A stretch of 64,000 nucleotides of DNA from Escherichia phage MX01: sequence record NC_031934.1. One strand, 5' to 3'. Of this stretch, positions 27,921 through 31,182 are shown piece after piece. The stretch's first letter is position 1. The number at the start of each line of letters is the position of its first letter. The notes under the pieces are model-generated. The model was not told where the DNA came from, did not search any database, and saw only the letters and a list, made by a program, of their open reading frames with translations. The position numbers and the translations under genes were made by a program.

Positions 27921-27928
27921 TATAAATA
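27921..27928 (+). promoter_or_regulatory. late promoter TATAAATA for gene 13
   Basis: Exact TATAAATA 22 nt upstream of ATG 27950. Confidence 0.6.
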
Positions 27929-28887: not shown

Positions 28888-29514
28888 ATGTTTTATAGAT
28901 TATACGTGACTGAGTTTGAAACGTCGGACGGATTAAAAATTTATGGCGGTAAAAGACATTCGGATAAATCTAATCCAAAGCTGGATTCATACGTTGGCTC
29001 AGGAACGTATATTTCGAATGCTAAGAAAAAATATGGACGAAACTGTATAAAACAGGTATTATGGTCGAAAGATTTCGGTAATCCGGAATTATTAAAGGAA
29101 GCCGAAGAACTTTTAGTCGATATTCTTAAAGAAGATTTTGCTCAGTGTGTTAATTTGGTAAAAGGAGGACAAGGTGGTCCTTCTTATTACAATCCTAAAG
29201 ATAACCCTAATATAGGTAAAACCCGTTCTATAGAATCAAGAAAAAGAATGTCAGAGGCGGCAAAATCAAGAGAATGGACTGAAGAAGGGCTAAAGCGTAG
29301 AAAAGAATCTACCGCATTAATGTGGACGCGTGTGAAACACCCAGATTTTACCGGTAGTAAAAATCCTGCGGCCAGAGCAGTTAGAGTCGGAGAAATGGTA
29401 TTCTCGACAGGTAAAGAATGCGCCGAGTATTTTGGTATAGTCAAAAGCGCAGTTATTAATAGAATAAAGAATGATAAACCTAAATGGAAGGAGTGGAGTT
29501 ATGTCGACATTTGA
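28888..29514 (+). CDS. GIY-YIG family homing endonuclease (Seg-like), free-standing
   Basis: N-terminal ...[12 protein letters not shown]...YVGSG pattern as in T4 Seg proteins; NUMOD-like [11 protein letters not shown]; C-terminal helix-turn-helix-like [22 protein letters not shown]; weak RBS. Confidence 0.65.
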
Positions 29515-30274
29515 TTCTAGTCTTTTCGCCAAACTAGAAAATAATACAGGTTACGCTAATACGAACGAAGCCGAAATTCTCAATCCCTTTGTCAACTTCT
29601 ACAAGCATGAGAATACCCAAACATTGGCTGATGCTTTAGTTGCTGAGTCTATTCAAATGCGTGGTATTGAGCTTTATTATATACCACGTGAATACGTTAA
29701 TCCAGACCAGCTATTTGGCGAAGACCTTCAGAACAAATTTACTAAAGCCTGGAAATTTGCAGGTTATTTGGATTCCTTTGAAGGTTATTCCGGTGACAAT
29801 ACTTATTTCAGTAAGTTCGGTATGATGGTTAATGATGAAGTAACAATCACAATTAACCCTAACCTTTTTAAACATCAATGCAATGGCACTGAACCTGTTT
29901 CAGGTGATTTGATTTATTTCCCAATGGACAACAGCCTATTCGAAATTAACTGGGTACAACCTTACGACCCGTTCTATCAAGTGGGTGCTAACGTCCAGCG
30001 TCGAATCACTGCTACCAAGTTCATTTACAATGGTGAAGAACTTCGTCCTGAATTACAGAGAAATGAAGGTATTAATATTCCTGAGTTTAGTGAGCTTGAT
30101 TTAATGCCTGTTAAGAATATCGACGGATTGGCTGATATCTCCGACATTCAATACGAAGAGGTCAATGAGATTAACGCCGAAGCGGCTGAATTCGTACATC
30201 CTTATGTTGTAATTAATGGACGAGGAGAGGATGCTCCTCCTACAGCATTTGATGATGCTTTTTTAGATGATTAA
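29501..30274 (+). CDS. 14: gp14 neck protein
   Basis: Track ORF starts at 29471; ATG 29501 with GGAGG RBS preferred; overlaps the endonuclease 3' end by 14 nt. Confidence 0.85.
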
Positions 30275-30281
30275 ATAATAC

Positions 30282-30304
30282 ATGGCGCATGGTGCGCCAT
30301 TTTG
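30282..30304 (+). terminator. hairpin after gene 14 (weak U tract)
   Basis: ATGGCGCA-TGG-TGCGCCAT followed by TTTGAG. Confidence 0.45.
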
Positions 30305-30315
30305 AGAGGTGATTT

Positions 30316-31178
30316 ATTTTTGGCCACTGGTACAATTCATCGCTGCGTCGCTATATTGTTTTGATGGGTGATTTATTTTCCCATGTCCAAGTAGCGCGTC
30401 AAAGAGAAGATACAGGACTTAAATTTATTAAGGTCCCTATTACGTATGCTTCTAAAGAAAGATTTATGGCAAATTTGGGTAAATGGACGGCCGTTCAAAA
30501 TATTCCAAATCCTAATATGTCTCCTAAAGAACGAGCTGAACAAAAGGCTAAAGTGGAAACAGTTCTTCCACGTATGAACCTTCAAATGGTTGATATGCTT
30601 TATAACTCACAATACAAAACAGCTCTTCAGAACAGAACACAAATTCAATTTGAGAATGGTGACCCGAGAAAACGAGTCAGCCAATATTCTCCTACTCCGG
30701 TTAAAATGATTTTCGAACTGGGTATTTACACTAGAACCCAAGATGATATGTTCCAAATTGTGGAACAGATTATGCCTTATTTCCAACCTCACTTTAATAC
30801 AACAATCACCGAACTCTATACAAACGAGATTAAATTTGACCGTGATATTCGTATTGTGTTCCAGTCTATTGCAATGGACGAACAATTGGAAGGTGATACC
30901 ACTTCTCGTCGTCGCTTAGAATGGTCTATGATGTTTGAGGTTAACGGATGGTTATATCCTCCTGTGAAGGAAATGGAAGGCGAAATTAAAACCATTTATC
31001 TTGATTTCTTTGCTAATTCAAAGGAACTCGCTCCTGAAGGTAATTTCGAATCGGTTGATAGCGAAGTGGTTCCGAGAGGTGTAGAACAAACAGAATGGGA
31101 TGGAAGTTCCGTTCAAACATATTCACAAGATATTCCAGTGCCTGTCGAGCCAGCGCCTCCAGCACCAAGGAGAAACCC

Positions 31179-31182
<4 letters not shown>
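30316..31182 (+). CDS. 15: gp15 tail sheath stabilizer / completion protein, apparent ATT start
   Basis: Track ORF begins at TTG 30361, but 15 upstream in-frame codons ([15 protein letters not shown]) align with the recalled T4 gp15 N-terminus MFGYFYNSSFRRYAT; the only candidate initiator is ATT 30316, 6 nt after GAGAGG. Confidence 0.75.

Follow-up and report, generated by a model that had tools for sequence, protein, structure and literature searches.

Initiation at AUU has, to our knowledge, been documented for very few bacterial genes, the classical examples being E. coli infC, which encodes initiation factor 3 (IF3), and pcnB, which encodes poly(A) polymerase I. A different kind of translation signal is found in prfB, where a Shine-Dalgarno (SD)-like stimulator lies 3 nucleotides (nt) from the shift codon. 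Gene 15 of T4-type phages, encoding the tail terminator or sheath stabiliser gp15, may provide a phage counterpart of the first kind. In a 64,000-nt stretch of Escherichia phage MX01 (NC_031934.1), referred to here as the window, this gene carries ATT where T4 has ATG, and initiation at the corresponding AUU (30316-30318) is judged to have a probability of about 0.8. The first-pass annotation had left two options, an AUU start or a mutated start codon. The former is supported by the comparisons described here, while mutation or sequencing error was rejected as the allele is common to independent genomes.

The likeness to infC and pcnB lies in an AUU standing in for AUG behind an SD element, in the conservation of this arrangement among relatives and in a product needed in low amounts. 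By analogy, IF3-sensitive initiation would be expected for gene 15. Unlike these two genes, gene 15 encodes a structural protein of the virion in a lytic phage and shows no evidence of autoregulation. Its start is also polymorphic within one genus (ATG, TTG, ATT) and sits on a short recombination patch, and the putative AUU start is paired with a stronger SD, often beside a homing-endonuclease gene. A further comparison is with the same gene in T4 and in JS98, IME08 and WG01, which share the 13-14-15-16-17 synteny. The window gp15 has 288 amino acids (aa) as in Dhakavirus, with an N-terminus identical to that of IME08 and close to that of T4. Relative to the ATG-type gene 15 of JS98, IME08 and WG01, the window has ATT, a rebuilt ribosome binding site (RBS) and 11 synonymous changes.

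The window comes from a Dhakavirus, a genus of T4-type phages, and is a relative of T4 of the JS98/IME08/Bp7 kind. When 1 kb around the start region served as query, 62 phage records matched, none of them identical, with Salmonella phage vB_SalD_ABTNLS3 (ABTNLS3) at the top (97.8%). The local gene order is gene 13, an open reading frame (ORF) resembling Seg/I-TevI homing endonucleases, gene 14, a hairpin, GAGAGG and gene 15, with the neck genes 13 and 14 upstream and the terminase genes 16 and 17 downstream. The gene 15 product matches Pfam PF16724 (T4-gp15_tss; E=2e-100, residues 4-271) and T4 gp15 in PDB 3J2M_A (E=5e-100, residues 1-285 against 1-271). The T4 sequence in PDB (3J2M/4HUD) begins MFGYFYNSSFRRYATLMGDLF, and its residue 1 pairs with residue 1 of the ATT-initiated ORF, which bears out the T4 N-terminus given in the first-pass annotation. 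Its proposed alignment of the codons upstream of the first canonical start with T4 gp15 also holds, and the N-terminal match cannot be put down to chance because ATG-type Dhakaviruses are identical to the window at 15/15 upstream residues.

Ahead of these codons the sequence reads GAGAGG (30304-30309), TGA (30310-30312), TTT (30313-15) and ATT (30316-30318). This layout places GAGAGG 6 nt before ATT, as had been claimed. It also agrees with the earlier view that TGA closes the gene 15 frame and leaves ATT at 30316 as the sole initiator candidate, there being no ATG, GTG or TTG in frame between TGA and Leu16; every coordinate given in that annotation proved correct. A mechanical ORF call begins at TTG 30361 and yields a protein of 273 aa.

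A start at AUG 30364 (or UUG 30361) would yield a gp15 without residues 1-16, the upstream codons then being a recently orphaned remnant. These are the first canonical starts in the gene 15 frame, and every public ATT-type record inspected annotates gp15 from Met17 or shorter. The evolution of codons 2-16 argues otherwise. Among 10 ATT alleles, synonymous divergence (pS) in these codons is 0.5-1.2, near saturation, with non-synonymous divergence (pN) at 0-0.28, while differences in both other frames are mainly non-synonymous. The window and Klebsiella phage F48 differ at 8 nucleotides in 7 of the codons with 0 amino-acid changes. Because ATT alleles differ here almost only synonymously, codons 2-16 are, on this substitution pattern, translated and under strong purifying selection in ATT lineages, and such selection in lineages saturated at synonymous sites is at odds with a recent remnant. 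On the 5' side of ATT the bases behave as expected of an SD and not of codons: a GGGGG run is invariant even at a would-be synonymous position and the triplet directly before ATT varies non-synonymously (TTT, GTT, GGT). Coding constraint therefore begins at ATT and not before it, with a coding pattern right after AUU and non-coding variation ahead of it. A Met17 start would also drop part of the Pfam domain, whose model starts at residue 4 of the ATT-initiated ORF, inside the omitted segment. Lost with it would be R11, which forms a salt bridge with E227 of gp14 in the T4 virion (PMC12929629).

The SD element further distinguishes the two candidate starts. GAGGTGAT (30306-30313) is complementary to the 3' end of 16S rRNA, and the 20 nt before ATT give a duplex energy of -13.4 kcal/mol, a value reached by 0/2000 random window 20-mers. 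The 20 nt before TTG 30361 / ATG 30364 give -1.5 kcal/mol against a random 20-mer mean of -3.2. Met17 thus has no SD, ATG-type relatives have the same sequence there, and a start at this codon would leave the strong SD before ATT purposeless. Initiation at Met17 is for these reasons considered unlikely. The GAGG-N6-start geometry of the window is that of GAGG-N6-ATG in KIT01, a Dhakavirus that contains a Mob endonuclease gene. All 23 ATT/ATC alleles have an SD at functional spacing, about 6 nt before the start, with an energy of -9.2 kcal/mol or lower. Their median is -13.2 kcal/mol, against -7.3 for ATG alleles (Mann-Whitney p=7e-7) and -12 for TTG; since the alleles are not phylogenetically independent, the pairing of strong SD elements with ATT starts is read as a consistent trend and not as a formal test.

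Most Dhakaviruses (IME08, WG01, JS98, C6, dhabil and IMG/VR copies) read CCATTT(T)AGGAGGTTTG ATG TTT GGA CAT TGG at the start of gene 15, and their gene is annotated at 867 nt, the same length as the ATT-started ORF of the window. The window allele, GAGAGGTGATTT ATT TTT GGC CAC, is also present in the independently sequenced Bp7 and ABTNLS3, which are 98.9% identical to an 87-nt query while every other record reaches at most 85.1%. These comparisons bear on the option of a sequencing or assembly error, or of a recent deleterious start mutation in a defective or hypomorphic genome. A single G-to-T change beside a T run is a plausible type of error, and the weakness of AUU as an initiator would suit a deleterious mutation. 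However, three independently obtained genomes carry the identical start with two synonymous differences among their alleles, and the change is not one substitution, as the RBS and the start codon have been rebuilt together. ATT has also been kept across large divergence in plaque-forming isolates from at least eight genera, and an error or recent lesion is scarcely credible.

ATT (once ATC) is found at the gene 15 start in at least five unrelated upstream contexts and at least eight genera. In addition to the window type, GAGAGGTGATTT-ATT, the context TRATGGGGGTGGKTT-ATT (GGGGGTGGKTT) occurs in Yersinia phage phiR1-RT, Serratia phage LC53, Klebsiella phage F48, Proteus phage phiP4-3 and the Logan contigs L261 and L265-L267. 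The Acinetobacter phages Acj9, AbTZA1 and Maestro share AAGGAGAATYAAA-ATT with locus L100 and one IMG/VR genome. RB43, Miller, Taquito, HMGUkp1, Dev_CS701 and KLB25 have GGGGGATTAGAAA-ATT with an in-frame TAG one codon upstream, and contig L262 has TGGAGGTGTCTT-ATT. Neither the RB43 type, which reads TAG-AAA-ATT, nor the window, which reads TGA-TTT-ATT, has a canonical start between the stop codon and ATT. In L263 (Logan SRR14654594 contig, about 850-855) the start reads GGGGGTGGTTT-ATC, with ATC replacing ATT.

Weak start codons (TTG, ATT, ATC) are common for gene 15. Distinct FG[HY]WYN-type alleles from IMG/VR and a few GenBank loci comprise 18 with ATG, 5 with ATT and 4 with TTG, and no GTG was seen at the homologous position among the alleles collected. 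TTG starts occur in Kosakonia phage 305 and related Enterobacter-phage-like genomes, in Cronobacter phage leE and in an Acinetobacter phage genome (loci L013, L021, L022, L027, L106 and L152). A scan of Joint Genome Institute (JGI) metagenomes for ATT followed by FG[HY]WYN listed 80 loci, one of which was a true gp15 (RB43-like), so that this source contributed little, and an IMG/VR scan with the pattern GGTGRTTTATTTTYGGNNAYTGGTAYAA, which was too specific, gave 0 matches.

Many relatives carry Mob-type HNH homing-endonuclease genes (40-79% mutual identity) exactly between genes 14 and 15. Carriers within the same genus are KIT01, vB_EcoM_005 and ABTNLsp5, and in the window this junction is free of Mob. 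In Acj9 (L095, 1199-1254) CAA replaces the TAA stop codon that ends the Mob-like ORF in the relative L100, and the Acj9 ORF thereby runs 19 codons into gene 15 in a different frame.

Some of these contexts resemble prfB, in that a G-rich SD-like element stands ahead of UAU and a slippery pyrimidine-rich codon, with an out-of-frame start in some alleles. A programmed +1 frameshift would begin at the out-of-frame GTG 30309, read GTG ATT TAT TTT and slip on TTT-T, with the SD-like element as the stimulator as in prfB; in GGGGGTGG-type alleles the start would be ATG or TTG. The arrangement GTG-NNN-TAT-TTT-YGG is found in the window, GGGGGTGG-type and L262 contexts, in Mob-containing alleles an ATG overlaps the mob stop codon (TAATG), and the alternative frame of L263, TAT CTT TGG, resembles the prfB shift site. 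Yet the string TAT-TTT-YGG is forced by the ATT-TTY-GGN coding sequence, and GTG 30309 belongs to the SD itself and has no usable SD of its own (-5.2 kcal/mol for the 20 nt before it). The spacing also departs from prfB, being 8 nt from the GAGG core or 4 nt from the extended pairing to the shift codon, and the A-site codon of the window is an ordinary UGG and not a stop or a rare, hungry codon. Several lineages have no zero-frame ORF at all: alleles of the RB43 type and of the Acj9/AbTZA1 type (including Maestro) lack a start codon in that frame. In Acj9 the frame is that of the extended mob ORF, and a shift would fuse Mob to gp15. A frameshift origin of gp15 is accordingly regarded as very unlikely.

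Stop codon readthrough would place the start at the ATG or GTG inside the hairpin (30289-30294) and carry translation past TGA 30310, its counterpart in RB43-type and phiR1-RT-type phages being passage through the in-frame mobE stop codon. The window does have an in-frame ATG-GTG upstream of TGA, and in the RB43 and phiR1-RT types mob shares its frame with gene 15. Against this, the upstream ATG lacks an SD and is enclosed in a stable hairpin, and the upstream 'codons' do not evolve as coding sequence. Mob-gp15 fusions would moreover arise in some lineages only, since the frames do not match in KIT01 and Acj9 and there is no start upstream in AbTZA1, making readthrough extremely improbable. 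Translational bypass between the two copies of a direct repeat spanning this region was also considered and rejected, as it would skip the conserved codons 2-16.

Initiation at AUU is favoured because a Met17 start, a +1 frameshift and readthrough each fail in some lineage or contradict conservation. Across the alleles compared, AUU (or AUC) initiation is the sole mechanism that appears compatible with all lineages and contexts. The extended SD pairing GAGGUGAU, with its core ending 6 nt upstream, would hold the 30S subunit while the initiator fMet-tRNA pairs with AUU by a third-position mismatch. The product would be a gp15 of normal length, 288 aa, beginning Met-Phe-Gly-His-Trp. IF3 discriminates against AUU, with a low output per mRNA as the expected result, and the strong SD may partly offset the weak codon for a protein needed at only six copies per virion. 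In one study, mRNAs with AUU are described as less active and as competing poorly, especially under low temperature and nutrient limitation (PMC5499595). We infer both the physical use of AUU as the initiation codon and the expression level of gp15 from these sequence features.

Several points weigh against AUU initiation. In E. coli, AUU normally initiates poorly, and its sufficiency for the essential gene 15 is assumed. The window, the GGGGGTGG type and L262 have an out-of-frame GTG, ATG or TTG inside the SD, and in these three contexts a frameshift route would be possible judged from their sequences alone. Upstream in-frame starts also occur, with a GTG four codons before the start in L259 and an ATG 18 codons before ATT, inside mob, in Acj9. 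The statistics on SD strength and Mob association come from phylogenetically non-independent alleles in an ATT-enriched sample. An incomplete literature search found no N-terminal peptide, toeprint or ribosome-profiling data on the gp15 start. Nor did this incomplete search, which included the Petrov 2010 review of T4-related genomes (PMC2993671), turn up a description of gene 15 starting at AUU.

The allele itself has a mosaic history. Bp7 and WG01 show 25 differences over 1.5 kb, 17/25 of which fall within 30304-30399. Here the coding changes relative to the ATG type number 11, all synonymous and confined to codons 3-28, and the RBS GAGAGGTGATTT replaces AGGAGGTTTG. ABTNLS3 equals Bp7 over 30046-30520 and the flanks differ at dozens of sites. 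On this distribution of differences, the ATT allele is best described as a short patch from a diverged donor that has moved between two Dhakavirus backgrounds, and because it is present on both it has been transferred and retained. Among the fetched alleles, none is nearer to the patch than the native ATG allele. The region also contains a direct repeat, one copy at the start and the other at Met17, with 19/21 positions identical and a spacing of 59 nt. The 59-nt spacing recurs in LC53 with a repeat of 14 nt, and in ATG-type relatives the resemblance between the start region and the Met17 region is weaker than in the window.

Mob genes are associated with the ATT allele. In the ATT-enriched sample, junctions with Mob comprise 13 ATT and 2 ATG alleles, against 10 ATT/ATC, 27 ATG and 5 TTG at junctions without it. 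The enrichment of ATT beside an upstream Mob gene is an association and not a rule, because ATT alleles also stand behind ordinary hairpins without a Mob remnant. The idea that every Mob-less ATT allele is the footprint of a lost Mob gene was weakened by L261, L262, L263 and L266, which have ATT or ATC and no Mob remnant. The locus resembles the T4-type free-standing endonuclease systems (MobE, SegF, SegG) in having Mob homologues at the gene 14/15 junction. It resembles co-conversion and marker exclusion in having a short, clustered, synonymous patch that starts at the insertion point and is common to different backgrounds, a pattern expected of gene conversion close to a homing site; the clustered substitutions lie next to the endonuclease site of relatives. 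It differs from the MobE, SegF and SegG systems in that the window has no Mob at the junction, some Mob-containing phages keep ATG, and some phages have ATT without Mob.

The AUU start may have arisen as a side effect of conflict with the Mob homing endonuclease at this junction, although this proposal is tentative and on balance doubtful. The gene 14/15 junction is where Mob inserts, and together with the gene 15 start it would probably also be what Mob recognises. Rebuilt alleles, with a new SD, ATG changed to ATT and the first ~28 codons recoded synonymously, may escape cleavage or arrive with the cassette, and could then spread by gene conversion even into phages without the endonuclease. 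The weak codon would be tolerated through the stronger SD and the requirement for six gp15 copies per virion. The 21-nt repeat could be a scar of templated repair.

The coordinates of the features are collected in Table 1.

Table 1. Features of the gene 14/15 region in the window.
Feature	Position	Strand	Remarks
Gene 14 (neck protein)	29501..30274	+	Pfam T4_neck-protein E=4e-107; relatives annotate 774 nt
GC-rich hairpin in the gap between genes 14 and 15, 8-bp stem, 3-nt loop	30282..30300	+	Also in ATG-type Dhakaviruses
Direct repeat copy 1, TTTTGAGAGGTGATTTATTTT, 21 nt	30300..30320	+	Spans SD and ATT
SD element GAGAGGTGAT	30304..30313	+	GAGG core ends 6 nt before ATT
Divergent patch carrying the ATT allele (96 nt)	30304..30399	+	Rebuilt RBS and start, synonymous-only changes in codons 3-28
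In-frame TGA closing the gene 15 frame, two codons 5' of ATT	30310..30312	+	
ATT (AUU), proposed gene 15 initiation codon	30316..30318	+	Position of ATG in relatives and T4
Gene 15 (tail terminator / sheath stabiliser), 288 codons and stop from ATT	30316..31182	+	
Codons 2-16, conserved N-terminal segment	30319..30363	+	Omitted by Met17-start annotations
Direct repeat copy 2, TTTTGATGGGTGATTTATTTT	30359..30379	+	Spans Met17-Phe21
TTG 30361 and ATG 30364 (Leu16/Met17)	30361..30366	+	Start in ORF finders and in GenBank Bp7 and ABTNLS3

The hairpin between genes 14 and 15 is a perfect 8-bp stem, ATGGCGCA-TGG-TGCGCCAT (30282-30300). The first-pass annotation was correct on its presence and less so on its terminator-like nature, since on the + strand only four T follow the hairpin, which makes it a weak terminator candidate, and a terminator scan called the hairpin on the - strand only and not on the + strand. 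A GC-rich hairpin just 5' of the gene 15 SD occurs in most T4-like genera (window 30282-30300; L023, L024, L025, L026, L030-L036, L098 and L259-L264). The stems and loops differ widely in sequence, as in GGGGCTTCGGCCCC, CCCGGGAAACCGGG and GGCCGCAAGGCC, and the hairpin in this gap is suggested to be a conserved structural element.

Upstream, gene 14 ends with the stop codon TAA at 30272-30274. Its longest ORF starts at 29471, but relatives annotate 774 nt, so that the true start is probably ATG 29501, giving a 14-nt overlap with the end of the endonuclease ORF. The endonuclease ORF (28888-29514, + strand, 208 aa) lies between genes 13 and 14 and has weak matches to two Pfam models, NUMOD3 and the I-TevI DNA-binding domain. 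Of 50,697 phage records, vB_EcoM_005 is the only one with this ORF at the gene 13/14 site, and this phage combines it with a Mob gene at the 14/15 site. A T4 late-promoter-like sequence, TATAAATA, is located at 27921-27928 (+ strand) directly 5' of gene 13. No further late-promoter-like copies were seen between 27928 and gene 15, an arrangement suggestive of a common transcript for genes 13, 14 and 15.

Public annotations treat the gene 15 start inconsistently. Gene 15 is annotated from Met17 in Bp7 and ABTNLS3, and gp15 is at least 16 residues too short in every ATT-type record examined (Bp7, RB43, Acj9, phiR1-RT, F48, the AbTZA1/Maestro group, Miller and others). The RB43 (L103) protein is annotated from GTG at codon 45. 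Erwinia phage Cronus (L260) and CC31 (L032) are annotated from an internal Met despite an ATG start with an SD. In IME08 (L002) the annotated gene 15 begins at an ATG within the hairpin and is 8 codons too long. Annotation from Met17 fails as a proxy for a non-canonical start, as Cronus, L264 and CC31 have ATG and yet are annotated short.

If the AUU start is true, public gp15 annotations omit a segment containing a residue that contacts gp14 in T4. A conserved and recurrent AUU start in an essential virion gene would, if true, be a natural and experimentally accessible example in a heavily studied phage family. The combination of a weak codon with a strong SD offers a hypothesis on how phages may tune low-copy structural proteins, and the link to an endonuclease site offers another, that selfish nucleases may reshape the translation signals of adjacent essential genes.

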